A program made the translations under genes and the position numbers. Below are positions 2,763 to 63,253 of a stretch of DNA of 64,000 bases, piece after piece. The DNA lies in the sequence record MN850595.1; one strand, written 5' to 3'. The notes beneath the pieces were generated by a model. The model was not told the DNA's origin and did not search any database. It saw only the letters and a program-made list of their open reading frames with translations. The DNA is from Escherichia phage naswa. The stretch's first letter is position 1. Each line of letters begins with the position of its first letter.

Positions 2763-3968
2763 ATGATTTTCATCTACGAACATTTCAAAACTCGTAAAGA
2801 AGCACGCGACCGCCGTGCAGAACTTGAGAAGAAGGGTTTCACATGTGCTATTGAGAAAGGTACTACAACATGGACACTGGCAGTAGGTGCCCCAGAGCTG
2901 TTTGATCCTGACCGAGACAGTGTCTGCTATACCCGTGAGGATTTTGAAACCCGCGAAGAGGCCCGTTTATTCCGCTACGGACTGGAAGACAACGGTAAGT
3001 ACGCCATGATCTTAGATTCAGGTGAAGGTTCCGTTAAACGTTGGGGCGTGGTATACCCACTGTGTGTTGTTCACGGTGTGGGGGTCACTGGGGTAGCAAT
3101 CAAGTCAGAAGAACCTTTAGTAGAAGTCAAAGATCCGGTGCTGGAAGTGGTGAGCAGTGTGTCTCAGCAACAGTCTCGAAGCATCGAGCCTTTGGTAGTT
3201 ATTTGCGGGGAACTCCTCCAGATCACCTGCAACGAAGGCATTTTTGAAATTCGCCGCAGCGAAAGTGAGGAAGTTTACCAGAAAGTCTTCGACCATATTT
3301 CTGTTCAGGAATATGATGAGGCAATTGGTGAAATCCTTGTCTGGCTGGAACGCAAGAATGAGTTCACCACACTTGCAGACAACCTGATCATGAAAGATGG
3401 TAAGCTCTACTACTACGGTGTAGAGATGCGATCCACCATTGCAAAGAAAATTGAGGAAGATTATGTAGATGGAACACTGGACGACCGATATGTTAAATTC
3501 CTTGTCCGTCTGCTACGCAACCCGTCTGCAAAATCTGTGAACATGCTCTACGATTTCATGCAGGCTAATGACATCCAGGTTGCAGAAGATGGTCGAATCA
3601 TTTGCTATAAGGGGGTTCAGTTTAACGGGAGCAGGTGGGTGGATTGGCACAGCGGTAAAGTTCCACAATACCAGGGTGCTTTTGTGTCCATGCCTCGTAA
3701 CTTTGTAGAAGATGATCCGGAAGCTGCGTGTTCTTATGGCCTGCACTGCGCCAGCAAAGAGTATGCAGCGGGCTATGGCACTGTAATGATGGTTATGGTT
3801 GACCCTGCGGATGTGGTTAGTGTGCCATACCAACACAACAGTGCTAAGTGCCGTGCATGCCGCTACGAAATAGTAGCAGCACCGGAATCACGCAAAGATG
3901 GCGATCCGATTGAATACGTAGTTGACCGTGATGGTAACATCATCGACATTATCTACGAGGAGGCGTAA
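2763..3968 (+). CDS. rIIB: rIIB-like protein
   Basis: C-terminal region NPSAKSVNMLYDFMQANDIQVAEDG...MPRNFVEDDPEAACSYGLHCASKEY...VDPADVVSVPYQHNSAKCRACRYEIV parallels T4 rIIB; AAGGAGA RBS. Confidence 0.75.
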   Translation: MIFIYEHFKTRKEARDRRAELEKKGFTCAIEKGTTTWTLAVGAPELFDPDRDSVCYTREDFETREEARLFRYGLEDNGKYAMILDSGEGSVKRWGVVYPLCVVHGVGVTGVAIKSEEPLVEVKDPVLEVVSSVSQQQSRSIEPLVVICGELLQITCNEGIFEIRRSESEEVYQKVFDHISVQEYDEAIGEILVWLERKNEFTTLADNLIMKDGKLYYYGVEMRSTIAKKIEEDYVDGTLDDRYVKFLVRLLRNPSAKSVNMLYDFMQANDIQVAEDGRIICYKGVQFNGSRWVDWHSGKVPQYQGAFVSMPRNFVEDDPEAACSYGLHCASKEYAAGYGTVMMVMVDPADVVSVPYQHNSAKCRACRYEIVAAPESRKDGDPIEYVVDRDGNIIDIIYEEA

Positions 3969-5338
3969 TGGAAAAAGGGCAGTATGACGTAGGCACAGAT
4001 GCTGCCCTCATTGCAATCATGAGTGGTGAGAATGTCTTCGTTTCAGGACCTGCAGGTTGTGGGAAGACGTATCTCATCAACATGATCCAGTCAATGTATG
4101 GAGACTCTTGCATAACGGTTGCCCCGACAGGGGTAGCCGCTTTAAACGTTAATGGAGCAACAGCACACCGAACATTCGATCTTGCAGCAGGTGTGAGCAT
4201 GGAGTCGGACTGGACCGCAATAAGGGCAAAAACAGCAAAGCCTTTGAAAAGCAAGGCATTTACCATCCTAATTATCGATGAAATCTCTATGATCCGTGCT
4301 GATAAGTTTATAGAGATGGATAGGAAACTCCGCTTCCTTCGAAAAAATGACAAACCTTTCGGAGGCATACAGGTCATATTGTTTGGCGATTTTTACCAGG
4401 CACCTCCTGTTGTCTCTTCTATGGAGAAGGAAGCCTACTTCAACTTCTACCATACGGACCTGTGTTGCTACACCGAATCTTGGAAAGAGCTTGACCTCCA
4501 CAACATAGCCCTAATAGATCAGTTCCGACAGGAGTCTATTCGATTTGCCACAATGCTTAACTGTGTTCGTGAGGGTCGTCGCATAAAAGAGGTTGTAGCA
4601 GAACTTAATGCTCGCTGTTACAAAGGTGGTGTACCAACAGATGCTCTCACAATTTGCGCCACCAACAAACAAGCAGAGGAAGTAAACAGAAGGTTCTATG
4701 ATGCCATCAACGCCCCAGAGAAGGTATACACTGGTGAAATGAAGGGTAAGTTTCCCTCCACCCTGCCAGTTGAGCAGGAGATGAAGTTGAAAATTGGCAT
4801 GAAAGTTATGATAACCGCCAACGATGTTGACCCGACGCACAAAGTACCTTATTATGTTAACGGAACACGTGCCACAATTGTTAAATTTAAGAACAAGGCG
4901 GTGGTGGTAGAGCTTGAAGATGGAACACAGGTTGACATAGAGCAGAGGTTGTGGGAGAATAACGAGTATAAGCCCTCTCAGAGATACAACATTGCAGAAA
5001 GGAAGATGGAGAAGTTTATAGAGAGGGTAGTGATTGGGTCATACAAGCAACTTCCTCTGAAATCTGGGTACGCCGTAACATCTCATAAAAGTCAAGGACT
5101 TACGCTAGATTGTTACAACCTAGACCTTGGAAAGAACGGAGCTTTCTCTCCTGGGATGACGTATGTCGCTTTGAGTAGAGTTAAGACAATACAAGGAATA
5201 AACTTGTTGCGTCCCCTAAGAGAAGTTGACATTATTGTTGACCCGCGAGTAGTAGAGTTTTACAATACAACATTCCCTGACTTAGACAAAATTGTCAGGA
5301 AAGATTTTGAAACCAGAGCAGAAGAGGGGGACGTATGA
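3968..5338 (+). CDS. Dda-like SF1B DNA helicase (RecD/Pif1-like)
   Basis: Walker A VSGPAGCGKT, Walker B IIDEISMI, C-terminal SHKSQGLTLD motif. Confidence 0.75.
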   Translation: MEKGQYDVGTDAALIAIMSGENVFVSGPAGCGKTYLINMIQSMYGDSCITVAPTGVAALNVNGATAHRTFDLAAGVSMESDWTAIRAKTAKPLKSKAFTILIIDEISMIRADKFIEMDRKLRFLRKNDKPFGGIQVILFGDFYQAPPVVSSMEKEAYFNFYHTDLCCYTESWKELDLHNIALIDQFRQESIRFATMLNCVREGRRIKEVVAELNARCYKGGVPTDALTICATNKQAEEVNRRFYDAINAPEKVYTGEMKGKFPSTLPVEQEMKLKIGMKVMITANDVDPTHKVPYYVNGTRATIVKFKNKAVVVELEDGTQVDIEQRLWENNEYKPSQRYNIAERKMEKFIERVVIGSYKQLPLKSGYAVTSHKSQGLTLDCYNLDLGKNGAFSPGMTYVALSRVKTIQGINLLRPLREVDIIVDPRVVEFYNTTFPDLDKIVRKDFETRAEEGDV

Positions 5339-5676
5339 GTTTGTGGAGAAATATCGTTAACTACGTGTGTGGCAATCCGACTCCTGAAGAGAAGGATGTT
5401 GTGATTCACGATTTTACTAAAAGATCTCGTGAAAAAGATCTACTGCTAACAAAGGTGACTGATAAAGATCCTGCAGTAGGGGACTGGGCAGGTTTTGCGT
5501 TTACATCGGACAAATACACCTTTAACAAAGGTGACTACCTTGTTGTGGATTTTAACGAAGACATTGAGGGTGCTGAACCTTACTATCAAACCCTTATTGT
5601 TGCAGGGTGTGTTAATCTCTCTGCAGGTATGCACAGTTTGATTCTTTTTGAGCTTGACTCTGAAGACCTTGAGTAG
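5335..5676 (+). CDS. Hypothetical protein
   Basis: 113 aa ORF overlapping helicase stop; no recognisable motif. Confidence 0.5.
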   Translation: MSLWRNIVNYVCGNPTPEEKDVVIHDFTKRSREKDLLLTKVTDKDPAVGDWAGFAFTSDKYTFNKGDYLVVDFNEDIEGAEPYYQTLIVAGCVNLSAGMHSLILFELDSEDLE

Positions 5677-5737
5677 TAAGATGTGAGTATAAAGGGGAGG
5701 CACTCCTCCCCACAAAAACTAAGGAGAGCACCAAACG

Positions 5738-7063
5738 ATGAGTAAAACCAAATTAGAACTAACCTGGATAGGTAAAAACGAGCGCAAAAAGTTAGAGCCG
5801 CACATTTTGTTAGAAGATTCTAGCAAGTCTTACCACAGCCAGAAAGTGACCGAAAACGATATTTTTGATAATAAACTGATTTTTGGAGATAACTTATTAG
5901 CATTGAAGGCGCTAGAGCAAGAGTATGCAGGCAAAGTGAAGTGTGTTTACATAGACCCGCCATTCAATACCGGGAGGGCTTTTGAGCACTACGATGATAG
6001 CCTGGAGCATTCCATTTGGCTGGGCTTAATGAGGGATAGGTTAGAAATAATTCGTAATCTTCTAAGTGATGATGGGGTAATATTCGTTCACTTAGATGAT
6101 TGCGAAATGGCGTATTTAAAAGTTTTGATGGACGAGATTTTTGGTCGTGCAAATCAGTTAAATACCATATCGATGACCACAAATTCCCCTTCGGGATTTA
6201 AGGCAACAGGAGCCACAGTTTTCTCCACAGCAAACTTTTTGCTTGTATATGCAAAAGATCGCACCCAGAAACCGCTTAATAAAATCTATATACCTAAAGG
6301 GTACGATACAGGATATAACAAATACCTATTAAACCCGGATGACCATTATAAAAATTGGACGTGGTGCAGTATTGCCGATGCGTTTGCAAAGGCCAATGGC
6401 TATAAGGATGCAAAAGAAGCCAAGAAAAAACTGCCTGACACATTCGATGATGAATTAGCACAATTCGCAATTGATAATGCAGAACGTGTATTTCAATCTG
6501 TTGCAATTGGTGGTGGTGCTAAAATAAAGAGAAAAGAAACTATCGAGAAGTCAAAGAAAGATAGGGATAAGGTTTATGTACATCCAAATGAGGATGTTGA
6601 AGGATTTTATATCGCAAATGGTAGGCAAATGGTCTTTTACTCCAATAGGCTTTTGGAAATTGACGGTGAGATGCAACCTGCGGAACTAATAACTGATGTT
6701 TGGACAGACATTAGTTGGAATGGAATAGCAAATGAAGGCGGCGTTAGTTTCAAAAATGGGAAAAAACCAGAAGCGCTTTTGAAGCGGATTTTCGAAATGT
6801 GTACGCGAGAAGGCGATTTGGTATTGGATTCATTCGGTGGTTCGGGAACTACTGCTGCTGTAGCTCACAAGATGAAAAGACGTTGGATCTCAATCGAGCT
6901 AGGTGATCATTGTCATACCCATATTATTCCGCGCTTGGAAAAAGTGATCGATGGCGAAGATCAAGGTGGTATTTCTAAGTCTGTAAGCTGGCAAGGTGGT
7001 GGTGGCTTCCGTTATTACAAACTCACCCCGGCCTTAGTTGCGAAAGATAAGTCTGATCAATAA
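5738..7063 (+). CDS. DNA methyltransferase, beta-class N6-adenine/N4-cytosine type (Mod-like, orphan)
   Basis: Motif IV DPPFNTG precedes motif I FGGSGTT; HSIWLGLMRDRL region typical of PF01555-type MTases; 5' hairpin plus CA-rich leader and AAGGAGA RBS. Confidence 0.75.
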   Translation: MSKTKLELTWIGKNERKKLEPHILLEDSSKSYHSQKVTENDIFDNKLIFGDNLLALKALEQEYAGKVKCVYIDPPFNTGRAFEHYDDSLEHSIWLGLMRDRLEIIRNLLSDDGVIFVHLDDCEMAYLKVLMDEIFGRANQLNTISMTTNSPSGFKATGATVFSTANFLLVYAKDRTQKPLNKIYIPKGYDTGYNKYLLNPDDHYKNWTWCSIADAFAKANGYKDAKEAKKKLPDTFDDELAQFAIDNAERVFQSVAIGGGAKIKRKETIEKSKKDRDKVYVHPNEDVEGFYIANGRQMVFYSNRLLEIDGEMQPAELITDVWTDISWNGIANEGGVSFKNGKKPEALLKRIFEMCTREGDLVLDSFGGSGTTAAVAHKMKRRWISIELGDHCHTHIIPRLEKVIDGEDQGGISKSVSWQGGGGFRYYKLTPALVAKDKSDQ

Positions 7064-7076
7064 AGAGTACAATCAA

Positions 7077-7382
7077 ATGATGAAACGTTATAAACCATAC
7101 ACTTTTGAAATCGATTTCGAACTTGACGATATGTTCACTGTGGAAGCTCAGGCAGTTGTCCAGTTGCCAGACCCAGAGTGTCGTGATTCTGATGTTGACT
7201 ATTATGGATTTAGACAGATCACTGATGTGCATGTTTACCACAACGGTGAAGAGGTGGACTTCCACCAATTGCCAAACGATATGCGCCACTCAATTTACAA
7301 ACGTGCAGCCCGTGAACTAGAGTCCTATCTGGATGCAGCGACGACAGCAGCTGCATTTGCTGAAGAAGTGGGAGGTTTCTGA
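7077..7382 (+). CDS. Hypothetical protein
   Basis: ORF; start moved to first ATG after MTase stop. Confidence 0.45.
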   Translation: MMKRYKPYTFEIDFELDDMFTVEAQAVVQLPDPECRDSDVDYYGFRQITDVHVYHNGEEVDFHQLPNDMRHSIYKRAARELESYLDAATTAAAFAEEVGGF

Positions 7383-7777
7383 TGATTACAGGTGTGAAGA
7401 TTATCCAATACCACTTAACCAAATTGGAAGATGCTGAAAAAGAGCTTGCAGAAGTTCTAAATAGTGGATATACTTTGCTATCATGCGCCTGCTCAGACAC
7501 CTACGCTGTGTGGACACTTATCCGGAAGGAGGAGCCTGCAGGGATCTTGGTGCCAAACCCTAAGATTATCAGTGAAGTGGATGACTGCTCTCAGGACGGC
7601 CTGTCAGAAGACTGGGAAGCATGGGAAGGTGGTGAAAACCCTGCACCAGGTAAGTGGGTAAAATACAAACTACGTAGCGGTGCACAGCACGCTGGATACT
7701 CTGATAACCTGGACTGGAGTCATTCTTCACCGGAATCATTGGTAAGTGCATATGATATCGTTGCTTTTCAGGAATAA
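7382..7777 (+). CDS. Hypothetical protein
   Basis: 131 aa ORF, start overlaps upstream stop. Confidence 0.5.
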   Translation: MITGVKIIQYHLTKLEDAEKELAEVLNSGYTLLSCACSDTYAVWTLIRKEEPAGILVPNPKIISEVDDCSQDGLSEDWEAWEGGENPAPGKWVKYKLRSGAQHAGYSDNLDWSHSSPESLVSAYDIVAFQE

Positions 7778-7789
7778 GGAGAGAGTGTT

Positions 7790-8272
7790 ATGTCAGATTT
7801 TATGTGGAAAGTAGGTTATGCCTCTCCTGAAATGTGCGAGGCTTGCTTTGTAAAAATAGGCCGCGAGGATATTGACAAAGTGATCTTTAAGTTTCGTGAT
7901 GTATCTGTGATCGGCAACCGAGTGCTTAAGCACTTAAAGAATCTGAAGCTCACCAAAAAGAAGTTCTTCGGACTTTTCGAAGAGAAAGTTGATGCTTGGA
8001 CCCATTGCATTCAGGAAGCTAAATCTCACTACAGTGCTATCGTTACCCCAGAACGGGTAGCCAAGATGGAAGGATTCATCAACAGCACAGAGTTTGAGTG
8101 CCTAAAGGCTGCCCTTAATAGTTATCCAAAGTGCCTCAAACACCTTGACAAGTATGTAGAAAAGGATGGGGAAATGTATCTCACCCTGGACGCATATTAT
8201 GAGATGCAAGAAATTTTAAATTTAGATTTGACATTGGTATCCACCGAGTATACAATAGGTATCCGGGTTTAA
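7790..8272 (+). CDS. Hypothetical protein
   Basis: 160 aa ORF with AAGGAGAGAG RBS. Confidence 0.55.
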   Translation: MSDFMWKVGYASPEMCEACFVKIGREDIDKVIFKFRDVSVIGNRVLKHLKNLKLTKKKFFGLFEEKVDAWTHCIQEAKSHYSAIVTPERVAKMEGFINSTEFECLKAALNSYPKCLKHLDKYVEKDGEMYLTLDAYYEMQEILNLDLTLVSTEYTIGIRV

Positions 8273-8277
8273 CACTA

Positions 8278-8305
8278 GGCCCTGCCCGAAAGGGTGGGGC
8301 TTTTT
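8278..8305 (+). terminator. Rho-independent terminator (hairpin GCCCTGCCC-gaaa-GGGTGGGGC + T5)
   Basis: Perfect GC hairpin followed by TTTTT; same 22-bp hairpin recurs at 18424. Confidence 0.65.
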
Positions 8306-8323
8306 GCATTAGGAGACAGCAAA

Positions 8324-9088
8324 TTGAAATTTATCTACAAAGAACACTACCACAAAGGTGTTGTGTGGAGTCTATTTGACGGGTCTGGTGGTGCAGTCAT
8401 TGACTGGGCAAAAGCTGGGTACCTGTGCCTGTGCTTTAATGCAGAAGGCGCTGATCACGGCAGTTATGCAGAGGTTATAACCGATCATCCCAACATTCAC
8501 TATGTGGATTATTGGATTGACCCATGGTTCCCTCAGGAAACTTTTTGCATGTACCCAGCTCCAGACTTTATTCTTGCATTTCCTCCGTGCACGCATTTAG
8601 CGGTATCAGGTGCTGCACATTTTAAGAAAAAGCTGGCTAAGGACCCTCTGATCCAAATTAATGCCGTAAAGGATGCTCGGGTTGCGGAAGAGCTGGGAGA
8701 GATTTACGATTGCCCGTGGCATGTAGAGAATCCTGTGGGTGTTATGTCCACACTGTGGCGCAAACCTGATTACCGTTTTCATCCTTCTGACTATGGTGGG
8801 TATTTACCGGAGGATGATGTAAACCCTTGGTTTCCTGAATTTATAGCTCCACGTGATGCCTATCCAAAAATAACTTGCGGCTGGATAGGTAATGGATTTA
8901 TAATCCCGCCCACAAAACCTGTCCCGCAAATAGTTGACGCGGTTAGCGGGTATTCTATGCAACACGCCAAGCTGGGTGGAAAGAGTGCAAGAACGAAGAT
9001 GATTCGAAGTCTCACACCACGTGGCTGGGCAAAAGCCGTATTCTTAGCAAACGAGCCTGTAGTAAGGAGCAGAATTAATGGGAAGTAA
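8324..9088 (+). CDS. Putative DNA (cytosine-5)-methyltransferase-like protein, short form
   Basis: Motifs in C5-MTase order: LFDGSGG (I), FPPCTHLAVSG (IV-like PC), HVENPVGV (VI ENV-like); start set to TTG after AGGAGA because track start lies inside terminator. Confidence 0.45.
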   Translation: MKFIYKEHYHKGVVWSLFDGSGGAVIDWAKAGYLCLCFNAEGADHGSYAEVITDHPNIHYVDYWIDPWFPQETFCMYPAPDFILAFPPCTHLAVSGAAHFKKKLAKDPLIQINAVKDARVAEELGEIYDCPWHVENPVGVMSTLWRKPDYRFHPSDYGGYLPEDDVNPWFPEFIAPRDAYPKITCGWIGNGFIIPPTKPVPQIVDAVSGYSMQHAKLGGKSARTKMIRSLTPRGWAKAVFLANEPVVRSRINGK

Positions 9089-11156
9089 ATTTATGGCATC
9101 TGCATACAACCGTTTCGGTGAGCCAAACCCGAAAGCAACTAAGTATAAAAGTGGGGGGAGTGTGAAACGAGACTATCGTGATGAAAAAGAAGTTGAAACT
9201 GTAGAGACTGTTTTAGAAAATACTAAAATTGTCCCTGTCCCACAACAAAATATCGGTCTGATGGCTGCACAATATTTTGGTGTGCGATCAGCATTGTCCC
9301 AAGAAGACGGTGTGACAGTCACTGCAACATATTTCCCATATTACGACCGCTACGGAAATCTGTCTGGTTTCAAAAAGCGTGACTGGACTATTCCTAAAGA
9401 GCAAAGGGGCCATTTCTCCGTTGTTGGCATCGTAAAGGCCAACTCCCAGATGTTTGGTCAAAAGCTGTGTGCATCTTCCAACAACCGTAAGCAGATTAAC
9501 GTTTGTGAGGGAGAAGGTGATGTTATTGCAGCATGGCAGGCTGCATATCAGATACAAGTAAAAGGGATTCTCACCAACGCTAAAGCCCCGGCAAAGGTGA
9601 AGCAGTGGGCTAAAGAGGTCCAGGACGGGATCGACGCAGTTATCAACGGTGGTGATCTGGCAGGAAAACCCTGCCTGCCTTTTGTTGGAATTAACTGTGG
9701 ATGTGCAAACGCAGTAGATACTTTTGCAAACAATGAGAAGTTTATCCGTAGCTATGGAACAGTTGTGCTGGCAATGGATAACGATGCAGCTAACGAGGTA
9801 GAGAAGCAAAAACACGTCATTAAAGGTGTTGAGGCCACGCACAATATCGCAGCATTTTTGATGTCTGATAACGTTTACCACGTAGAATACCCCGGTGAAG
9901 TAAATGACCCTGACGGTGTAAAAGATATCCGAGACATGCTGAAGGCTAAAAAGCTGGAAGATATTGTCAACATGTTCCGGCACCCTGTTAAATATGTGCC
10001 TGATGCTGTGTCGGATTTAGAAGACTTCTCTATCGAGTCTTTGCGGAAAAAGACTTCCAACGGGGTAGATATCAGTGCAGAGTTCCCAAAACTGCAAAAA
10101 ATGCTAAAAGGCTTGCACAAAGGGACACTTGTAATGCTTACAGGTCCATCAGGCGGCGGTAAAACAACCGTGGCTAAAAAACTGGAACACTGTATTGCAA
10201 GATACCTAATGGACCCGACATGCCCGAAGGCCGATGACTATGAAGAGGATGATCGTCTATGCATGATCCATCTTGAGGAGGATCCAGAGGAAGCAATTAA
10301 CTCCTTGTATGCAAACCAGTTAGGGTTTGATGTTAAAGAGTTTGTTGAAGATCCTAGCCAGTTTTTAACTGATCAAGAACACGCAGAGATTCACCAATCA
10401 TGGGCAAAAGCTGGAAAAATCAAAGTGTTCAAACATTTCGGGTCTATTCCGGTGGACGAGTTGATTACCAAGCTTAAGCAAATGGTTTGCCTGTACCATT
10501 GTCGTTATATTGTGCTGGATCACCTGTCCATGGTAATTTCAGGGCTTAATGTTAAGGATGAGCGAAAAGAACTGGACATGGCTATGACCCAACTGGCTGC
10601 GTTTTGTAAGCAGTTTAACGTGTTTATCTTGGTGATCGCTCACCTCAAACGTACAGAGATTGTGCCCCCTAAGGACAAGGATGGTAACCCATTACCTTTC
10701 TGGTATCCTGTGCGAAAAGAGAATTTGCGAGGATCGGCTGGGCTTGAACAGTTGAGTTGGGTAGTCATAGGTGTCGAGGCCGAAGAAATGGTGGATCGTT
10801 CTCGTGGACGTGTCCGTCTGGTAGGTCTTAAAAACCGTCCAGCAAAAACTTTAGGTATTGCTGACACTTTAGTTATGGATCCGCATACAGGTAAGTTCCA
10901 TGATGCCAGTAATTGGTACTGGGACAAAGAAATGCAGATGTTCACAGACGGAGAAGGTGGGGAGGTTGTTTGGAGACCTCAGGCTATGTTTGAGGATCAG
11001 GAGCATGCAGTTGTAGAAACACCTATGGGCAAGGTTGTGGCTGATAAGGTTGTAACACCCACTGTCAAGCCTATTGACACGCAGGAAGACCTCCAATACG
11101 ATGATCCATCCTCTGATCCGGTCCCTGGTTTTGAGGATGATGAAACACCTTTTTAA
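9078..11156 (+). CDS. Primase-helicase (TOPRIM primase domain fused to DnaB-like helicase)
   Basis: TOPRIM-like CEGEGD and MDNDAANE; Walker A LTGPSGGGKTT; DnaB-family helicase motifs; acidic C-terminal tail ending DDETPF. Confidence 0.8.
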   Translation: MGSKFMASAYNRFGEPNPKATKYKSGGSVKRDYRDEKEVETVETVLENTKIVPVPQQNIGLMAAQYFGVRSALSQEDGVTVTATYFPYYDRYGNLSGFKKRDWTIPKEQRGHFSVVGIVKANSQMFGQKLCASSNNRKQINVCEGEGDVIAAWQAAYQIQVKGILTNAKAPAKVKQWAKEVQDGIDAVINGGDLAGKPCLPFVGINCGCANAVDTFANNEKFIRSYGTVVLAMDNDAANEVEKQKHVIKGVEATHNIAAFLMSDNVYHVEYPGEVNDPDGVKDIRDMLKAKKLEDIVNMFRHPVKYVPDAVSDLEDFSIESLRKKTSNGVDISAEFPKLQKMLKGLHKGTLVMLTGPSGGGKTTVAKKLEHCIARYLMDPTCPKADDYEEDDRLCMIHLEEDPEEAINSLYANQLGFDVKEFVEDPSQFLTDQEHAEIHQSWAKAGKIKVFKHFGSIPVDELITKLKQMVCLYHCRYIVLDHLSMVISGLNVKDERKELDMAMTQLAAFCKQFNVFILVIAHLKRTEIVPPKDKDGNPLPFWYPVRKENLRGSAGLEQLSWVVIGVEAEEMVDRSRGRVRLVGLKNRPAKTLGIADTLVMDPHTGKFHDASNWYWDKEMQMFTDGEGGEVVWRPQAMFEDQEHAVVETPMGKVVADKVVTPTVKPIDTQEDLQYDDPSSDPVPGFEDDETPF

Positions 11157-11214
11157 TGTTTAACAAAGAGTGGGAGGGGTAGTACAACCGCCTCCCCTTT
11201 AAGGAGAACTGTAT

Positions 11215-13992
11215 ATGAGCATGTGGTCGTTCGATTTTGAGTCATCCGGTTTGCTGGAAGACCCAGATCTTTATTATCACTGCGGTCTGTTTAAAGAGCT
11301 GAATAAGAACCGTTTTATGCTGTTCCTTCCTCTAAATGACCGCACACACTACTCCGGGGAGGATATAGAAAAGGCTAAGAACTTCATTCTGGCAAAGAAA
11401 ACTCTTTATAAAGATTTTGAAGTTCGCATAGCAGATTTTTCGGAGTTGGAAGGTTGGCTTACAGGCAATTCTGACTGGTCACCAACAGCTTTGAACTGCC
11501 ATAACTGCTACAGTTATGACTTTATGCTGATGGAAAGATTATCCGGTATTCATTTTGATATGTTCCGTGATCCTAAATGCATGGGGACTATCAACGACCA
11601 CCAGGTTAACCTGTTTGATACGTTGGCGATGAGCAGAATCTTGTGGCCTGATCGCCCTTTACCAAAAGGTTGTCCGGACTCTGTATTCAACCCGGTTACT
11701 AAGAAAATGCAGCCTGTTGGTCCTCACGGCCTTATGGCATGGGGCTACGCCCTTGGTAACCAGAAAGTTCAAATTGATGACTGGCGCGATCTTCCGTTGT
11801 GGAAGTATGTGGATCGTGTATTCGAGGACGTTATCATCCAGGAGCTGCTCTGGAAAGAGCTGGTAGCGGAATCAAAAGGCGTATTCTACGGCAAATCTGA
11901 CATGCAGAACTTTATGTACGATCCAGCCAAAGAGAAGCCGAAAGGGTTCAAGAAAATCACCTGGAAGAACGCATTACGCCGAGGCATGCTGCAGCACTTC
12001 CTGATGGAGCTGCAGGCCCGTCAGGGTGTGTATTTCGACATAGATGGGGCTATTGCCTTACGTGACCGTTGCGATGCGTGGATGAAAGAGATCGCTGATC
12101 GTGTTGAACCTCAACTTCCTTTAAAAGAGTTGTCAATGTCTCAGCGGCCCAAGTTCCCTGAAAAGCCGTTTAACCAAGACGGGACAATCTCCAATAATGG
12201 TTGGAAATGGTTAAAAGATAAGCTTGGCTATCCTGTAGACATGAGCGCTTTAGAATTCAAAGCCCCGCCTAAGCGAGCATTTACCTCCACAGGAGATGTC
12301 AGCAAGATGGGGATAAAATGGTGCGAAGAGATGGGCTGCAAAGACCCCGACAAGATGGCTGATTTCTTGAGAGGTTATATTAAGGGCACCTCCACACCAC
12401 AACCTTTACCTAAAGAGCTGATGGATCAGGCAATAAGTGATCTGCAGCAGAAGCGAATGCCTGACTGCAAGATACCTATGAAAATCAGCAATCAGGACGA
12501 CATTAAGCGATACCTGATCAGTGCTGGTTGGCTTCCGACAATGTGGAGAACTAAGGATGTAACTAAGGACAGCAAGAAGAAAGCTCTACCTGATGCAGAT
12601 GTTGATGCACGAGTATATGCATACATGGACGAGCTTTTAGAGTCAGAGTATTGTGACCTAATTATCAACTTCTGGAACAAAACTGATGCTAAGTTTCAGA
12701 CAACAGTGCACAAGTTCCGAAGCTTTCCTAACTCCGAAAGGATTAAAAAGGAAGTGTTCGGGAAAATACGCAGAAAAGCCAGGGCACTTATTACTTCTCC
12801 GCAACTGAAAGATACGTTTGGACACCTATGTCCGAATCTTGAAAAATTGAACGGAGAGATGGCTAAAGATATCGTCTTGTGGTTATCATTGCGAAACCGC
12901 AGATCGGTCCTTGATCCAATCAAGGAGGATAAGGTTGATACTGGTCTTCTTAATCACCCACGTTTGAAGATTGACCATAAGCTTCCTGCTAAAAGCTCTG
13001 GATTAACAAACACTTCCCGACAGAAACACAGTATTTGTGCAAACATGCCTAAACCATCTCCTAAAGTGGTTATGGGTAAAGAGATGCGTAGCTTGTGGGG
13101 TGTTCCTCCTGGATACTTTGAGATCGGTATTGACGGGTCCAACTTAGAGCAGCTTATCGGGGCTTGGGGTGCCTTTGAGTTCGACAACGGCTTGTACTAT
13201 GATGTTGTAAGTAACGGAGACGCACACCAAAACAATGCTGAAGCATATACAAAAGTAGCAGGCAGAGAGGTGTCTCGTAACGACGGTAAACCTATCACGT
13301 ATGGGGTTATGTACGGGGCACAAAAAGATAAAGTTGCAGATATGCTGGATATCTCCCCAGAGTTGGGGCAAAGGGTGATCGATGCACTTTGGGATGCCAA
13401 CCCCGGTCTTAAGGGGCGCAAAGAGGATCTGGAGAAATTCTGGGAAGCAACAGGTAAGAAGTTTATCTACTCTTTTGATGGTCATGCTATCTGGACCCGA
13501 TCTAAACACTCTTTACTTAATGCATACCAACAAAATGGTGGTGCATCGCTGTGTGACTTAGTTGGGATACTCATGCACCACCAAATGGTGAAGCGTGGGT
13601 GGTACGATGAAGGTGTCCGTCGTATTATCTATTACCATGACGAATATCAGCTTCAAGTGCCTGACACACCGAAGTATAAGACTGTGTACACCTTCGACAC
13701 AATTGAAGAACTGGAAGCATTTAAGGCAGAGCAGGAAGCCAAACTTCATGTGTTCGACGGTCATAAGTACAAAAAGGTACGCAAGGATGAGGACGGAAAC
13801 GAAGTGGTTGACAGAGACGGAAACACGGTGTACGATCCTATCCTGAACGATGACGGAAAGCTTGAACTTATCTGGAGCCCTGTGGGTGAAATGGTGGTGC
13901 ATTGCTTCTGGCAAGCTTCTAAAATGATGGGAGTCCCGTTCCAGATCACAGGTGAATACTTGTGTGGTCGTAATTGGGGTGATTGTCACTAA
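11215..13992 (+). CDS. Family A DNA polymerase with 3'-5' exonuclease domain
   Basis: Exo motif FDFESSG near N-terminus; pol A motif B KPITYGVMYGAQ and motif C YYHDEYQ; AAGGAGA RBS. Confidence 0.85.
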   Translation: MSMWSFDFESSGLLEDPDLYYHCGLFKELNKNRFMLFLPLNDRTHYSGEDIEKAKNFILAKKTLYKDFEVRIADFSELEGWLTGNSDWSPTALNCHNCYSYDFMLMERLSGIHFDMFRDPKCMGTINDHQVNLFDTLAMSRILWPDRPLPKGCPDSVFNPVTKKMQPVGPHGLMAWGYALGNQKVQIDDWRDLPLWKYVDRVFEDVIIQELLWKELVAESKGVFYGKSDMQNFMYDPAKEKPKGFKKITWKNALRRGMLQHFLMELQARQGVYFDIDGAIALRDRCDAWMKEIADRVEPQLPLKELSMSQRPKFPEKPFNQDGTISNNGWKWLKDKLGYPVDMSALEFKAPPKRAFTSTGDVSKMGIKWCEEMGCKDPDKMADFLRGYIKGTSTPQPLPKELMDQAISDLQQKRMPDCKIPMKISNQDDIKRYLISAGWLPTMWRTKDVTKDSKKKALPDADVDARVYAYMDELLESEYCDLIINFWNKTDAKFQTTVHKFRSFPNSERIKKEVFGKIRRKARALITSPQLKDTFGHLCPNLEKLNGEMAKDIVLWLSLRNRRSVLDPIKEDKVDTGLLNHPRLKIDHKLPAKSSGLTNTSRQKHSICANMPKPSPKVVMGKEMRSLWGVPPGYFEIGIDGSNLEQLIGAWGAFEFDNGLYYDVVSNGDAHQNNAEAYTKVAGREVSRNDGKPITYGVMYGAQKDKVADMLDISPELGQRVIDALWDANPGLKGRKEDLEKFWEATGKKFIYSFDGHAIWTRSKHSLLNAYQQNGGASLCDLVGILMHHQMVKRGWYDEGVRRIIYYHDEYQLQVPDTPKYKTVYTFDTIEELEAFKAEQEAKLHVFDGHKYKKVRKDEDGNEVVDRDGNTVYDPILNDDGKLELIWSPVGEMVVHCFWQASKMMGVPFQITGEYLCGRNWGDCH

Positions 13993-24358: not shown

Positions 24359-24391
24359 TAACCACAGTTGAGCGGAAAAGGGGGCTTAAAG

Positions 24392-24511
24392 ATGAGCACT
24401 ACACGCCAGCACACAAAGGTAACCATCATCGTTTGCATCATTGGGTACATCCTGGCGCAAATGTTGATGGGTAGCGCCAACGGTGTCGCAAAATTTTTCT
24501 TAAACTTTTAA
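24392..24511 (+). CDS. Small membrane peptide (39 aa), not in ORF track
   Basis: ATG after GGGGG RBS downstream of module promoter; hydrophobic core VTIIVCIIGYILAQMLMG. Confidence 0.35.
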   Translation: MSTTRQHTKVTIIVCIIGYILAQMLMGSANGVAKFFLNF

Positions 24512-24512
24512 T

Positions 24513-24540
24513 TGACAAGCTAACTTAAATCGATATAATA
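24513..24540 (+). promoter_or_regulatory. Sigma70-like promoter (TTGACA-16-TATAAT)
   Basis: Consensus hexamers upstream of 24591 gene. Confidence 0.55.
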
Positions 24541-24590
24541 AGCACATAAACGGGAAAACTTCCCAGAACACACAAAAGGAGAAAAACACC

Positions 24591-24932
24591 ATGACTACTA
24601 TGACCGCCTCAGAAAAAGCTATGCAGATCGCTGAACTGAAAAAACAGATCGCAGACCTTGAGAATAAGATCGATAACTTTGAAATCGACGAGGACAAGTA
24701 CGACGAAAACTATGATGAATGGTTAGACGAGATCTACGGCGAAATTATGATCGGAAACATTTCTTTTCTTCCGTCGCGTATCCTCAAGGAGCTAGATCCT
24801 ATCGCTTACCGCTGCGGATTTAGCGACTACATCGACAGCCTGGATATTGAGGACGATGAAGAATACCAGGAATTACAGACAGAGTTAGAAGAAGCAAAAG
24901 AAGAGCTTGCGGAGCTGGAAGAAAACGAGTAA
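24591..24932 (+). CDS. Highly acidic small protein (possible DNA mimic)
   Basis: 113 aa, Asp/Glu-rich throughout; own promoter and AAGGAGA RBS. Confidence 0.55.
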   Translation: MTTMTASEKAMQIAELKKQIADLENKIDNFEIDEDKYDENYDEWLDEIYGEIMIGNISFLPSRILKELDPIAYRCGFSDYIDSLDIEDDEEYQELQTELEEAKEELAELEENE

Positions 24933-30505: not shown

Positions 30506-30556
30506 GTATTTCGTAGGGCGGCAATGATGCCGCTCACAACTAAAAGAGAGATCATC

Positions 30557-30751
30557 ATGGCGCTTAAAAAACTAACAAGCAATACTCGTTGGGATGAAAT
30601 CGACGGGGAAGTTTACATTTTTGCCCGTAAACCAGGGGATCAAAAATGGTCAAAGGCTTTTACTTGCCATCCTGCAACAATAGATCTGATAAAAAGTCAA
30701 GGACTACGTGAAGCAGTAGCAAGAAGTTTACTGATCCCTTGTAAAAATTAG
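30557..30751 (+). CDS. Small hypothetical protein
   Basis: ATG after AAAGAGAG RBS. Confidence 0.45.
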   Translation: MALKKLTSNTRWDEIDGEVYIFARKPGDQKWSKAFTCHPATIDLIKSQGLREAVARSLLIPCKN

Positions 30752-30752
30752 T

Positions 30753-30780
30753 TTGACAACAGTCAACAATCTGGTAAAGT
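30753..30780 (+). promoter_or_regulatory. Sigma70-like promoter (TTGACA-16-TAAAGT), paralogous module 2 of 3
   Basis: AGTTTGACAACA shared with module 1. Confidence 0.5.
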
Positions 30781-30828
30781 GTACTACATAGCGCGGGAAT
30801 ACTTCCCGCCATTAATGAGGGTAATTTA

Positions 30829-30966
30829 ATGAAAACTTTCAACGCAACAGCCTCGACAATTGGTTATATTATTACAGTACAAGCCGTGGATCTGGTAGCA
30901 GCAGCAAACAAGATTAAAAAGATGATTCCGCCAGGTAGTGAATTTTCCGTTTGGGAAGTAAAATAA
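30829..30966 (+). CDS. Small hypothetical protein (45 aa), not in ORF track
   Basis: ATG after TAATGAGGGTA RBS context shared with next gene. Confidence 0.4.
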   Translation: MKTFNATASTIGYIITVQAVDLVAAANKIKKMIPPGSEFSVWEVK

Positions 30967-30969
30967 ATC

Positions 30970-30997
30970 TTGACAATAGTTTATTACTTGATAGACT
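30970..30997 (+). promoter_or_regulatory. Sigma70-like promoter (TTGACA-16-TAGACT), paralogous module 3 of 3
   Basis: Consensus -35; leader duplicates that of module 1. Confidence 0.5.
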
Positions 30998-47720: not shown

Positions 47721-48005
47721 CTACCAGGTTACTGTCAAGTAGGCAACCGTATTATTTTTCTCTGGGGAGATGCCAACAACATCTACCTGCAGACCTCCTG
47801 CCCTTAAATCTCCAACAATGTGCGGGAAGTAATCTGAGAGATGCGATGGTAGATTTATCGAAAATCCGCACCCCAGAAAGCCTGCTAACGCTTTATTTTG
47901 TATCTCCCCTACAATCGCATCATAAATAGAGTTAAGCTCGTCAGGAAGCGTTACAGGACGTTTTAGCGCTAACTGGTGTAATTTGTCCTTAGCACTCATT
48001 TTCAT
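47721..48005 (-). CDS. Hypothetical protein
   Basis: Start set to ATG with ATGA overlap on methyltransferase stop. Confidence 0.45.
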   Translation of the reverse strand: MKMSAKDKLHQLALKRPVTLPDELNSIYDAIVGEIQNKALAGFLGCGFSINLPSHLSDYFPHIVGDLRAGGLQVDVVGISPEKNNTVAYLTVTW

Positions 48006-48535
48006 TTCAGGTCTACCTCTGGAGGTGCCAACCACATAAATGGCGGCAAGTCTAAACGGTTTTTCTTATCCCAGACAAAATATGCATATGCTTGCCCGTC
48101 AGTTCTGCCATTTGATTGAAAAGATGGACGCTTAGATATTGTGATCACAGTGGTAGGTGCATTATCAAGCCACCATTCAAATCTGGCTTTGCTTTCCAGA
48201 AAATTAAGACGCAAAAGCATAATAACTACGTCAGCATCTTTCAACGCCTTGTCTACAAACTCACGAGCCAAACTGTATGGTGGGTTGGTGATAATACAGT
48301 CAACATGGTTGTATTCTGTATTCAGATAGTCAACACCTTCTTGGATTTCTCCCCATGCAGATCCTAACGGCATACGTGAGTAGAACACACCTGAGGCACT
48401 ATTCCTGCAAGGCTCTAAATAGGTCCAGTCTTCTGGGAACGGAATAAGGTCATACAGCCCTTCTGCACACCACTCCGGTGTCACATACTCATCGTAAGCG
48501 TTACGTTGTTCATCAGGTTTTCTAGCACAAGTCAT
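48002..48535 (-). CDS. Small DNA N6-adenine methyltransferase-like protein (NPPY motif)
   Basis: Catalytic-type motif IITNPPY; GGAGA RBS; follows ClpP-like terminator. Confidence 0.6.
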   Translation of the reverse strand: MTCARKPDEQRNAYDEYVTPEWCAEGLYDLIPFPEDWTYLEPCRNSASGVFYSRMPLGSAWGEIQEGVDYLNTEYNHVDCIITNPPYSLAREFVDKALKDADVVIMLLRLNFLESKARFEWWLDNAPTTVITISKRPSFQSNGRTDGQAYAYFVWDKKNRLDLPPFMWLAPPEVDLK

Positions 48536-51459: not shown

Positions 51460-51933
51460 TTAGTCAACCTGAACCCAACCATCTGCTACCTTTTTAAACA
51501 TTCTTTGGTTATCACTGCCTCTAAAGGGTTTTTTGGTGGGGTTATCTTTTTCGTACTTACCGTCCATAATGTAATCAACACTATCTTTAATGTAATCGGG
51601 GACTTCTTCAAACAAATACCCTGTGTACACCCAGATAGTTTTTGTGTTGCCGAAGTGTTCACGGATAGCGCGAATGATCGAGTACATACCATCAATATTG
51701 TAAGGCGCTAAAGGTTCGCCACCGCATAATGTAACGCCAGTAATGTGTTTCGGCTCTATAGAGTGAAGTATACTCTCAATAGTGTCATTTGTTAACGGTT
51801 CCCCTTTAGCTGGTGACCAAACACTTTTGTTTTGGCAACCGACGCAGTGATGTGGGCAACCAGAACAGAACACCGTTGTCCTAATGCCTGGGCCGTCAAC
51901 CATGCTACACTCTATAATATTAACAACATTCAT
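51460..51933 (-). CDS. nrdG: Anaerobic ribonucleotide reductase activating protein (radical SAM)
   Basis: DGPGIRTTVFCSGCPHHCVGCQN motif. Confidence 0.8.
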   Translation of the reverse strand: MNVVNIIECSMVDGPGIRTTVFCSGCPHHCVGCQNKSVWSPAKGEPLTNDTIESILHSIEPKHITGVTLCGGEPLAPYNIDGMYSIIRAIREHFGNTKTIWVYTGYLFEEVPDYIKDSVDYIMDGKYEKDNPTKKPFRGSDNQRMFKKVADGWVQVD

Positions 51934-52166
51934 TCCTTATCCTCTTTTAGGTAAGGATATTCAGGCCCACAATAAGCTCTATCCAAGAAAACAGCTTCTT
52001 CCCCTCTGGAATCAGTAGATCTATAATACCCATCACCATGGTAACTAACGAACCAGTGGCACCCATCATCGCTTTCTACTGTTGTGGCTCTGTCCGAATG
52101 AAAGATAATTTCGTAATCCTTACCGAATGTAAACCATCTGTTAGCTTTTACACAGACACCTATCAT
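51930..52166 (-). CDS. Hypothetical protein
   Basis: 78 aa ORF, ATGA overlap with nrdG. Confidence 0.45.
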   Translation of the reverse strand: MIGVCVKANRWFTFGKDYEIIFHSDRATTVESDDGCHWFVSYHGDGYYRSTDSRGEEAVFLDRAYCGPEYPYLKEDKE

Positions 52167-52317
52167 AAGGAACCTCTCTTCTGTGATGTGCTTCTATTCA
52201 AGATAAACCTATAAAAGTCCATTTGATGAAGCCGTATAACTTTTTATACTTACGCTTCAGTGCTAACAATTTTATCTTGATTTTCTTGATAGATTTCCGC
52301 ATTTCGACCCCTTATGC

Positions 52318-52434
52318 TTATAAGTACTCCGCATCGCATTCAGGGCAATGCCAAATAAAATCGTCCAGTGCCTTGCACCAACGAAGATTGCAACGACAAC
52401 CACACTTGCAAATTTTATAAATACCTGATGACAT
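52318..52434 (-). CDS. Small Cys-rich zinc-ribbon peptide (38 aa), not in ORF track
   Basis: ATG after GGAGG RBS; CKCGCRCN...CPEC pattern. Confidence 0.35.
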   Translation of the reverse strand: MSSGIYKICKCGCRCNLRWCKALDDFIWHCPECDAEYL

Positions 52435-52486
52435 ACTGCACCTCCTTAGTTAATAGCATGTTTAAGATATGCATATCTTTCTACAA

Positions 52487-53419
52487 TCATTTACCACAAA
52501 TCTTCTTGTATACCTCTTCTACCGTGTCAAACACTTCAGGCCTGTAGTAGAAAAACTCAGTGCTACCGTCAAATTTTACAGGAAAGTTTATTTTATACTT
52601 GCTCAAGGCCTTATGCACAGATTTTTCTAAATCTACCATGTTTTGAGTTGATCCGCTCCATGTTTTTACTACGTGAAGAGTGTGGACACCTGCGCCAGAT
52701 TTACGAGCACTGTTAAGCACCTCATTTTTCCTCCTGTGCATTTTAACGCATACACCGATTTTCATAAGTGTTGGCACTTCTAAGTCATCAACCATAATGT
52801 AGAGTTTACCGTACTCATGAGATAAGAATCCATTTTGTGCGCATTTACAGCAGCCACGACCACTTTTTAGGTTATTAGGTTTAGCAGACCACTTATACCT
52901 ACAAATTTTGCACCTACATTGCACTTTTGTGTTATCATTGGCAATTTTCTCTAATATTTCTATGTCTGGGTTGGCTTTGTGGATAATTGCAGCGTGCTCC
53001 TTATGGGTTAACGCTTGACTTTTCCCACGTCTTAAGTCATAGCACTCTGGGCAGCCGTTTCTTTGGTATAAGTGGTTTTCAGGGTATTGTTCAAACACAC
53101 CGTGTTCAGGGCAAACAATTTTTACAGGCGTTCTCATGTTCGCATATTTGACTAATGAGTAATCGTACTTGTCCCCATGAACAGCCATAGCCTCTTTTAT
53201 GAACTCTTCAGTGTTCTTTTTCGCTGACCCACCACACCTTGGACAACCATGATTCTTGAAAGCATGTGCCACAGGGGTTTGCCAGAACTCACCGTGCTCA
53301 GGACAAATTATACACACAGGTGTCTTGTTGTTTTTATACTCCACTTTGAAGTAATCATATTTGTCACCATGTATAGTCTGAGCTTTTTCTATAAACTCTT
53401 CGGTTGTTAGTCTTCTCAT
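52487..53419 (-). CDS. Putative homing endonuclease-like protein (tandem zinc-binding modules + T5orf172-like C-terminal domain)
   Basis: Three repeats of IHGDKYDY...CPEHGxFxQxP..H....GCPxC; C-terminal KIGVCVK...GSTEFF resembles T5orf172 domain; sits between nrdD and nrdG. Confidence 0.5.
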   Translation of the reverse strand: MRRLTTEEFIEKAQTIHGDKYDYFKVEYKNNKTPVCIICPEHGEFWQTPVAHAFKNHGCPRCGGSAKKNTEEFIKEAMAVHGDKYDYSLVKYANMRTPVKIVCPEHGVFEQYPENHLYQRNGCPECYDLRRGKSQALTHKEHAAIIHKANPDIEILEKIANDNTKVQCRCKICRYKWSAKPNNLKSGRGCCKCAQNGFLSHEYGKLYIMVDDLEVPTLMKIGVCVKMHRRKNEVLNSARKSGAGVHTLHVVKTWSGSTQNMVDLEKSVHKALSKYKINFPVKFDGSTEFFYYRPEVFDTVEEVYKKICGK

Positions 53420-53532
53420 TACCAGACCAGACCCTTCCGCTATTCACTTTATATTGCATACTATAGAAAAGAGGAATAGAAGTCAATAAAAACAAAAAAA
53501 AATGAGAGCATCCTTGCTCTCCACCTCTTTCC

Positions 53533-62794: not shown

Positions 62795-63253
62795 TTAGAA
62801 GTTTGTTTTTACACGTCCCTTTTCATCAACCTCGTTGTTGGCTAGAAGCGTTACAAAGTCTGTGAAACGGACATGAAGAACTCTTTTCTTATCAAGGTAT
62901 CCTAAAGCCACCCCTGAGAAATTTAGCATCAAAGGGGCTAAAGAAGCTCTGGCACTGAAATGCTGTTGTTCTACCCTTCCAACACCCTTAGTGTAGGATG
63001 GGTTAAGATTGTAAGTTCTGAATCCCAGTTTTGTTGGAGCTTTAGAATTAAAAACAACTTTATAGCGTTTCTTACTCAACTTATGCTCCAGGATAAGCAT
63101 TCCCTTATCACCCTTGATAAGTTGAAAATCTGTAAAGTGCTCTTTTAATACGAAAGGTAGTGCCAGTCCCATCGCCTGCCCCCTTTGTACCGCTGTCTCA
63201 CCAAAAGCTTTTGCATCAGTAAGTTCTTTGGTCAAGTCTATGCTTTTGATCAT
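62795..63253 (-). CDS. Hypothetical protein
   Basis: 152 aa ORF overlapping methyltransferase 3' end. Confidence 0.45.
   Translation of the reverse strand: MIKSIDLTKELTDAKAFGETAVQRGQAMGLALPFVLKEHFTDFQLIKGDKGMLILEHKLSKKRYKVVFNSKAPTKLGFRTYNLNPSYTKGVGRVEQQHFSARASLAPLMLNFSGVALGYLDKKRVLHVRFTDFVTLLANNEVDEKGRVKTNF

Follow-up and report, generated by a model that had tools for sequence, protein, structure and literature searches.

Introduction

The methyltransferases (Mods) of Type III R-M (restriction-modification) systems have asymmetric recognition sites, at which one strand is methylated. The Mod of EcoP15I is made up of an N-terminal domain (NTD, residues 14-60), a methyltransferase domain (62-262 and 390-516), a domain for target recognition (TRD, 263-384) and a C-terminal domain (CTD, 539-644). 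The Mods dimerise through the NTD and methyltransferase domains, the CTD contacts the Res subunit, and the Mod2 dimer alone methylates DNA (PMC4490356). Among the C5-cytosine enzymes, K42 Dcm, an orthologue of bas06_0055 of phage KarlJaspers, was found by LC-MS (liquid chromatography coupled to mass spectrometry) to place 5-methylcytosine (5mC) on the multicopy single-stranded DNA (msDNA) of retron Ec86. Its activity was abolished in C82A/E128A/K175A/K176A, and its structure was also compared to DNMT3A (bioRxiv 10.1101/2023.08.16.553469). In the present study two methyltransferase genes, the open reading frames ORF1 and ORF2, were analysed in a 64,000-nucleotide stretch of Escherichia phage naswa (record MN850595.1; hereafter the window), a Vequintavirus (rV5-like), in which they lie on the plus strand between positions 5738 and 9088.

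The original prediction for this locus had described two solitary methyltransferases of different classes and had suggested broad self-methylation against host restriction. The reading we favour, and regard as probable, is that ORF1 is a captured Type III Mod without the CTD, that ORF2 is a minimal C5 methylase, and that the two provide self-methylation of a narrow kind.

Results

ORF1 is a Type III Mod without the Res-docking domain

ORF1 (5738-7063, plus strand; 441 residues) is a beta-class N6-adenine methyltransferase. It matches PF01555 (N6_N4_Mtase) with an E value of 3.8e-42 and a score of 145.2 bits, well above the family cutoff (26.7). The catalytic motif IV, DPPF (residues 73-76; 5954-5965, plus strand), aligns with DPPY of the EcoP15I and H. 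pylori Mods, and motif I for S-adenosylmethionine (SAM) binding, FGGSGTT (residues 366-372; 6833-6853, plus strand), aligns with FAGSGTT of Type III Mods. Motif IV is thus N-terminal to motif I with the TRD between them, which is the beta-class order and agrees with what had been predicted from the two motifs. The PADLOC profile MTase_III (PDLC03636) was matched at 2e-204 over positions 2-444 of 575, and the best PDB sequence matches were Type III Mods, those of H. pylori (6k0w, 1.3e-28) and EcoP15I (4zcf, 2.2e-24). ORF1 therefore belongs with the Type III Mods both by profile and by match to the solved Mods, although the full NTD-methyltransferase-TRD-CTD architecture is not present. Its E. 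coli homologue covers positions 1-572 of the same PADLOC profile. The alignment of ORF1 to the EcoP15I Mod stops at residue 522, before the CTD (539-644); therefore the Res-docking domain, and little else, has been lost.

Cellular homologues of ORF1 are 60-96% identical to it and nearly all are 560-600 residues long. A 567/568-residue Mod of E. coli strain 2014C-3011 (WP_024226319.1) shares 96% amino acid and ~95% nucleotide identity over the 441 residues. The truncation junction was located at 7050-7079 (plus strand) by DNA and protein comparison with the 2014C-3011 locus and the host Mod. Where the E. coli gene reads AAGATAAGT-TTGGCTTGGAAG-TGATCAATAAAGAGTACAA, the phage reads AAGATAAGT-C-TGATCAATAAAGAGTACAA, a net deletion of 11 nucleotides at 7053. 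The resulting frame shift leads to a TAA stop at 7061-7063. Past this stop an out-of-frame remnant, LINKEYNQMM (VINKEYNPEML in the host), can still be read, and the homology then ends. The deletion junction, the stop and the host remnant identify ORF1 as a captured Mod minus its last ~125 codons. A downstream ORF of 114 residues was considered as the missing C-terminus of a split Mod gene and was ruled out, as only its first ~12 residues are host-like, and these are out of frame.

An open reading frame that stops at a frameshifting deletion, and that has lost ~125 C-terminal residues found in nearly all cellular homologues, might be a decaying pseudogene remnant without activity. This is very unlikely. 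The catalytic motifs of ORF1 are all intact, and the ratio of non-synonymous to synonymous substitution rates (dN/dS), when calculated with the E. coli gene, is 0.10 (48 synonymous and 21 non-synonymous differences). With phage Bas51, and so within the phage lineage, it is 0.054 (14 synonymous and 3 non-synonymous differences). These ratios indicate that ORF1 is under purifying selection. The 441-residue form is kept at a protein identity of at least 93.5% in 86 phage records. Moreover, the lost domain is outside the Mod dimer interface, and the EcoP15I Mod2 is active without Res (PMC4490356).

Only 3 of the 20 amino acid differences between ORF1 and the E. coli Mod fall within the presumed TRD (approximately residues 180-330), and the target site is hence expected to be that of the donor. 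Relatives of ~440 residues that also lack the CTD, 65% identical to ORF1, were seen in metagenome contigs that are not clearly phage-borne. Loss of the CTD is thus not a trait of phages only. These relatives are flanked by a short SNF2 fragment and by a protein of 560-628 residues with a weak TnsA-like nuclease N-terminus; judged from this arrangement, the methylase core may here work with another nuclease partner, the TnsA-like protein.

The donor-type Mod-Res pair of E. coli and the proposed action of ORF1

Of 5426 complete E. coli genomes, 24 (0.4%) carry an ORF1-like Mod gene at ~95% nucleotide identity. In 2014C-3011, a Type III Res of 912 residues (PADLOC REase_III, 8.9e-191; PF04851) follows the Mod after 21 nucleotides, and the pair is located in an island adjoining tRNA-Sec (the selC island). 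Upstream of the Mod are genes for a MAD1-type helix-turn-helix (HTH) protein (NCBIfam), a DrmD-like SNF2 helicase and AbiD. The order HTH-SNF2-Abi-Mod-Res (4115-13464 of the 2014C-3011 locus) recurs in a TARA marine metagenome contig (1-10469), where the Mod is 75% identical and an AIPR gene stands in place of a hypothetical gene of the E. coli cassette. The donor-type cassette looks like a composite defence system rather than a plain Type III R-M system. The literature on ARMADA II and MADS held nothing informative for the ORF1/ORF2 locus.

In the scheme we propose, the Mod subunit was acquired recently from an enterobacterial Mod-Res system. The gene then underwent the 11-nucleotide deletion, its 3' end was replaced, and the domain that docks Res in EcoP15I was removed in this way. 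The product retains the N-terminal helices used for dimerisation together with the catalytic domain and the TRD. It is predicted to act as a stand-alone Mod dimer placing N6-methyladenine (m6A) at the site of the donor system, which is probably short and asymmetric. Such a mark would make the phage DNA immune to the donor system, and the enzyme could not build a restriction complex.

A CTD-less subunit could also act on the host protein itself. With its dimerisation surfaces retained and the Res-docking domain gone, ORF1 would then pair with the resident Mod in hosts that have the 95%-identical system, and these mixed dimers would be unable to recruit or activate Res, a kind of subunit poisoning. 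If true, such a dominant-negative effect would act faster than methylation of incoming DNA. We give this possibility little weight.

ORF2 is a DNMT3-like C5-cytosine methyltransferase

ORF2 (8324-9088, plus strand; 254 residues) is a short, DNMT3-like C5-cytosine methyltransferase and belongs to phrog_757, the 'Dcm-like' family of phages. The program-derived start, a GTG at 8294, falls within a hairpin at 8277-8302. The TTG at 8324, preceded by AGGAG at a distance of 8 nucleotides, is also the GenBank start, and the gene was therefore taken as 8324-9088. Motif I is FDGSGG (residues 18-23; 8375-8392, plus strand). Motif IV is FPPCT (residues 86-90; 8579-8593, plus strand), which aligns with PPCQ of M.HaeIII and PC of DNMT3B and contains the catalytic Cys89, equivalent to C82 of K42 Dcm. 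Motif VI is ENPVG (residues 135-139; 8726-8740, plus strand), with Glu135 equivalent to E128; K175 of K42 Dcm corresponds to K182. The order I-IV-VI is that of C5 methyltransferases, and a short C5-like enzyme with FxGxGG, PPC and ENP in this order had been predicted. Among 23 aligned homologues FDGSG, PPC, ENP and the C-terminal segment IRSLTPRG.A.AV are invariant or nearly so, and the Cys, Glu, Asn and Pro residues are invariant. Loss of catalytic residues, which had been named as a result that would speak against the original prediction, is thus seen in neither enzyme.

Classification with hidden Markov models, proposed as a check, gave different outcomes for the two proteins. ORF1 passes PF01555, whereas ORF2 is below the PF00145 threshold and matches PHROG 757, 'DNA methyltransferase', at 6e-87 instead; no match to ORF2 was obtained in Pfam, NCBIfam or PADLOC. 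When a profile of ORF2 was compared with PDB sequences, 13 weak matches were obtained (E values 0.27-1.4). All 13 were C5 methyltransferases, and their motifs I and IV lined up with those of ORF2. A single-sequence search of PDB with ORF2 returned sub-significant matches only. In the fold comparison ORF2 showed the catalytic-domain fold of C5 methyltransferases, and DNMT3B was nearer to it than any bacterial enzyme. The class assignment follows from this comparison together with the characterised homologue: ORF2 is 54% identical over its full length to bas06_0055 of KarlJaspers (a 711-bp gene; E value 2e-87). The family comprises 3548 database proteins of ~225-260 residues and is present in 1503 of 50,697 phage records (~3%), including Drexlerviridae, Dhillonvirus, Klebsiella siphoviruses and Vequintavirinae.

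By analogy with this homologue we infer that ORF2 makes 5mC, possibly at CCWGG as reported for the 54%-identical enzyme. Transfer of a group other than methyl, such as carboxymethyl from carboxy-SAM (Cx-SAM) as by the phage enzyme CmoX, would be an alternative reaction, and it is extremely improbable. LC-MS showed 5mC as the product of the K42 enzyme, with which ORF2 shares the TPRGFA segment, and neither cmoA nor a cmoY-like gene was seen in the window. DNMT3 enzymes also carry an Arg at the corresponding position (GRSWSVPV) and use SAM.

Adenine methylation in Vequintavirus DNA and its likely writers

Four methyltransferases had been predicted in the window, two of them on the other strand, and all four were recovered. 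The third (48002-48535, minus strand; 177 residues) is a Dam-like N6-adenine enzyme with an NPPY motif (phrog_799, 8e-67). The fourth (63216 to beyond 64000, minus strand) is a Type II gamma-like enzyme in which EPSAGRGSF is followed by NPPF (PADLOC MTase_II, 1.3e-33). In Escherichia phage magaca the fourth enzyme is 272 residues long. Its gene overlaps by 38 nucleotides an ORF of 152 residues (62795-63253, minus strand; phrog_9938), for which no match was found in Pfam, PADLOC or NCBIfam, yet which is labelled 'N6-adenine methyltransferase' in GenBank. This ORF could be a partner that confers specificity, or its annotation could be wrong.

Bas51 (WalterGehring) is 97.4% identical to the window at the ORF1/ORF2 locus. 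Its 'N6 adenine methyltransferase' has been published as the trigger of retrons Asa1 and Squ1, with the escape mutations D69G, D79G and T83P. These mutations fall exactly on D69, D79 and T83 of the 48002-48535 ORF, which is therefore the orthologue of the GATC methylase of the Bas51 study. The ORF1 orthologue was ruled out as the retron trigger, since D69, D79 and T83 do not occur at those positions of ORF1. This orthologue (bas51_0070) bears the same product name, 'N6 adenine methyltransferase', and is easily confused with the small NPPY trigger. The point is worth flagging for any reuse of the Bas51 data.

Literature searches for methylome or restriction-digest data on rV5-like phages gave the adenine methylation of Bas51 only. 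Nanopore calls of m6A in wild type Bas51 were 1405 at GATC, 509 at GTAC and 576 at other positions; in the T83P mutant they were 35, 511 and 349, respectively (PMC12548924 S4 table). The window contains 338 GATC and 135 GTAC per 64 kb. Compared with these numbers scaled to ~140 kb and two strands, the Bas51 counts correspond to near-complete methylation of both GATC and GTAC. Thus self-methylation in the genus is real, and this part of the original suggestion holds. The observed/expected ratio of GTAC in the window is 0.70, the second lowest among palindromic tetramers; GATC, at 1.05, is not avoided. The most under-represented was CTAG, with 58 observed against 125 expected (ratio 0.46).

The GTAC calls persist in T83P and are hence independent of the Dam-like enzyme. 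E. coli K-12 is not known to make GTAC methylation, and some other phage adenine methylase should be responsible. ORF1, the best-supported adenine methyltransferase of the genome, could be this writer in place of the fourth gene, acting as a Type II-like methylase of a palindrome against enzymes of the RsaI/Csp6I type, in keeping with the mild under-representation of GTAC. This is rather unlikely. The ~510 calls fit near-complete methylation of GTAC on both strands, whereas Type III Mods methylate one strand at asymmetric sites, and the fourth gene, a complete Type II-like methylase, is an obvious alternative. As a palindrome of 4 bp, GTAC would suit the Type II-like fourth gene more than it would a Type III Mod. 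In the favoured reading any product of ORF1 would be found among the other calls, whose number is about that expected for an asymmetric site of 5 bp.

Protection against restriction would be narrow

In the BASEL study the Vequintavirinae were 'exceptionally susceptible' to R-M systems, apparently without 'any effective protection'. The panel consisted of EcoKI, EcoCFT_I, EcoRI, EcoRV, EcoP1_I and EcoCFT_II, and methylation at GATC, GTAC or CCWGG covers the sites of none of these. The Type III system EcoCFT_II was considered as the cognate system of ORF1. Of the 100 E. coli matches to the ORF1-like Mod, the 60 that were listed include no CFT073 record. These 60 were sampled evenly down the ranking, so that some of the 24 close matches are not among them. 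EcoCFT_II is probably not the cognate system, and the BASEL data probably do not bear on ORF1.

The data fit several narrow, site-specific protections, and the broad protection suggested originally is not supported, given the susceptibility seen in BASEL and the narrow motifs. The target of ORF1 would be a single Type III system that is uncommon in E. coli (0.4% of complete genomes). Two of the families described here contain methyltransferases that also trigger retron abortive infection, which is a cost to the phage.

That the phages remain sensitive to R-M, and keep the family in spite of the retron response, could suggest that the methyltransferases serve the phage internally, in the timing of replication or packaging, in the distinction of phage from host DNA or in gene regulation. 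ORF1 and ORF2 both lie within the replication module, and the 3' end of ORF2 overlaps the start of the primase/helicase gene by 11 nucleotides. No regulatory target for such a role is known. ORF1, TRD included, is nearly identical to a Mod of the host species whose Mod-Res pair looks functional, and this argues instead for mimicry of the mark of that pair. We thus consider internal roles distinctly unlikely as the selective benefit, and protection from the donor-type system the better candidate.

Gene neighbourhood and conservation of the locus

Between 5000 and 10000 the window is 100% identical to Escherichia phage magaca (MN850612) and 97-99% identical to ~100 further rV5-like phages. Over the whole window magaca is collinear except for a few indels, and the second half is more divergent. 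The regions 24360-24931, 30522-30991 and 51572-54811 differ from magaca, the differences being short insertions or replacements and one segment of just 92% identity. The counterpart of this segment in magaca is the region of the anaerobic ribonucleotide reductase and an HNH homing endonuclease. Among records labelled 'Campylobacter phage' and assigned to the host C. jejuni, dozens (MG065635, MG065659, MG065662 and others) are 98% identical to E. coli Vequintaviruses at the locus; these are probably mislabelled or contaminant assemblies.

The order of genes on the plus strand is rIIA, rIIB, a PIF1/Dda-like helicase (3968-5338), an ORF of 113 residues, ORF1, three small ORFs, ORF2, a DnaB-type primase/helicase (9078-11156) and a DNA polymerase (11215-13992). 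The replication-module setting described before is borne out by these neighbours, and the number of small genes between the two methyltransferases is exactly three, as stated. They lie on the plus strand at 7077-7382 (101 residues, phrog_4240), 7382-7777 (131 residues, phrog_11995) and 7790-8272 (160 residues, phrog_12900), and are of unknown function. The first occupies the place of the lost Mod C-terminal domain and is not homologous to it, with a resemblance to the host Mod confined to its first residues. It has no match in Pfam, NCBIfam or PADLOC, and the other two have none in Pfam or PADLOC. Among the neighbours of ORF1 and ORF2 no nuclease or restriction endonuclease was detected by Pfam, NCBIfam and PADLOC, in line with the earlier claim, the small ORFs themselves being uncharacterised. 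No res gene (SF2 helicase-nuclease) adjoining ORF1 was found in the window neighbourhood with Pfam and PADLOC, whereas the E. coli homologue has one. ORF1 and ORF2 are solitary methyltransferases on this negative evidence, with the three small ORFs uncharacterised.

A sigma-70-like promoter, TTGACA-17-TACAAT, with 11 of 12 consensus positions, was found by consensus scan at 8228-8256 (plus strand), in the 3' end of the ORF preceding ORF2. About 20 nucleotides past it is the terminator-like hairpin (8277-8302, plus strand), with an 11-bp GC-rich stem and a T-run, followed by the ribosome binding site and TTG start of ORF2. By its position the hairpin could terminate the upstream gene, or ORF2 and the primase could have it as a leader/attenuator.

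Discussion

That ORF1 and ORF2 are methyltransferases is already known. They are annotated in many GenBank records, under the labels 'putative N6 adenine methyltransferase', 'type III restriction-modification system methylation subunit' and 'Dcm-like C5 cytosine methyltransferase', and the ORF2 family has been characterised experimentally. Three features of ORF1 were not found described elsewhere: how nearly identical it is to a host Mod-Res pair, where exactly the deletion junction lies, and that the Res-docking domain alone was lost. This detail of the truncated Mod appears new and is a modest addition. ORF1 represents a clear, datable capture of a host R-M methylase by a lytic phage, in which precisely the nuclease-coupling domain was lost. 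Since cognate host strains exist, ORF1 is suited to testing phage immunity through mimicry of a host mark.

Several points count against the reading favoured here. The motifs reported for Bas51 appear to point away from ORF1, whose product would be confined to the 349-576 calls of the remaining class. The activity of a Mod without its CTD is predicted from the EcoP15I enzyme. Literature searches found no 5mC data for any Vequintavirus. ORF2 fails PF00145, with nothing even at E values up to 5, and the cutoff of 22 bits is not reached by its KarlJaspers homologue either (11.1 bits). In the KK pair of K42 Dcm, the second Lys (K176) has Ile as its counterpart in ORF2. Finally, the high R-M sensitivity of Vequintavirinae in the laboratory and the rarity of the cognate system (0.4%) mean that the benefit may be small or elsewhere. 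The origin, truncation, class, fold, catalytic motifs, purifying selection and lack of a detectable nuclease are matters of direct comparison. The activity in this phage, the target sites and a selective benefit through anti-restriction are the parts that these points touch, and they are put forward as probable.

Compared with known systems, ORF1 has in common with the Mods of EcoP15I (4zcf) and H. pylori (6k0w) the beta-class motif order, the NTD, the catalytic domain and the inserted TRD. Those Mods have a CTD and a partner Res, whereas ORF1 has neither the ~125-residue C-terminal Res-docking domain nor a res gene. Unlike the Mod of the E. coli selC-island pair, it is placed in the replication module of a lytic phage. 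The GATC enzyme of Bas51 is likewise solitary and comes from the same genus, and differs in class (NPPY, 177 residues) from both ORF1 and ORF2. ORF2 shares with the canonical C5 methyltransferases of PF00145 (M.HhaI, M.HaeIII and E. coli Dcm) the fold of the catalytic core as well as motifs I, IV and VI, but it is ~70-220 residues shorter, has no large TRD and falls under the Pfam threshold. Its length class, motifs, DNMT3-like fold and minimal TRD are those of the phage 'Dcm-like' enzymes (phrog_757), to which KarlJaspers/K42 Dcm, the trigger of retron Ec86, belongs. Within this family ORF2 forms a branch of its own, with 79-81% identity to the nearest relatives outside Vequintavirus, ~55-60% to the rest, and a change from KK to KI at the DNA-binding pair.

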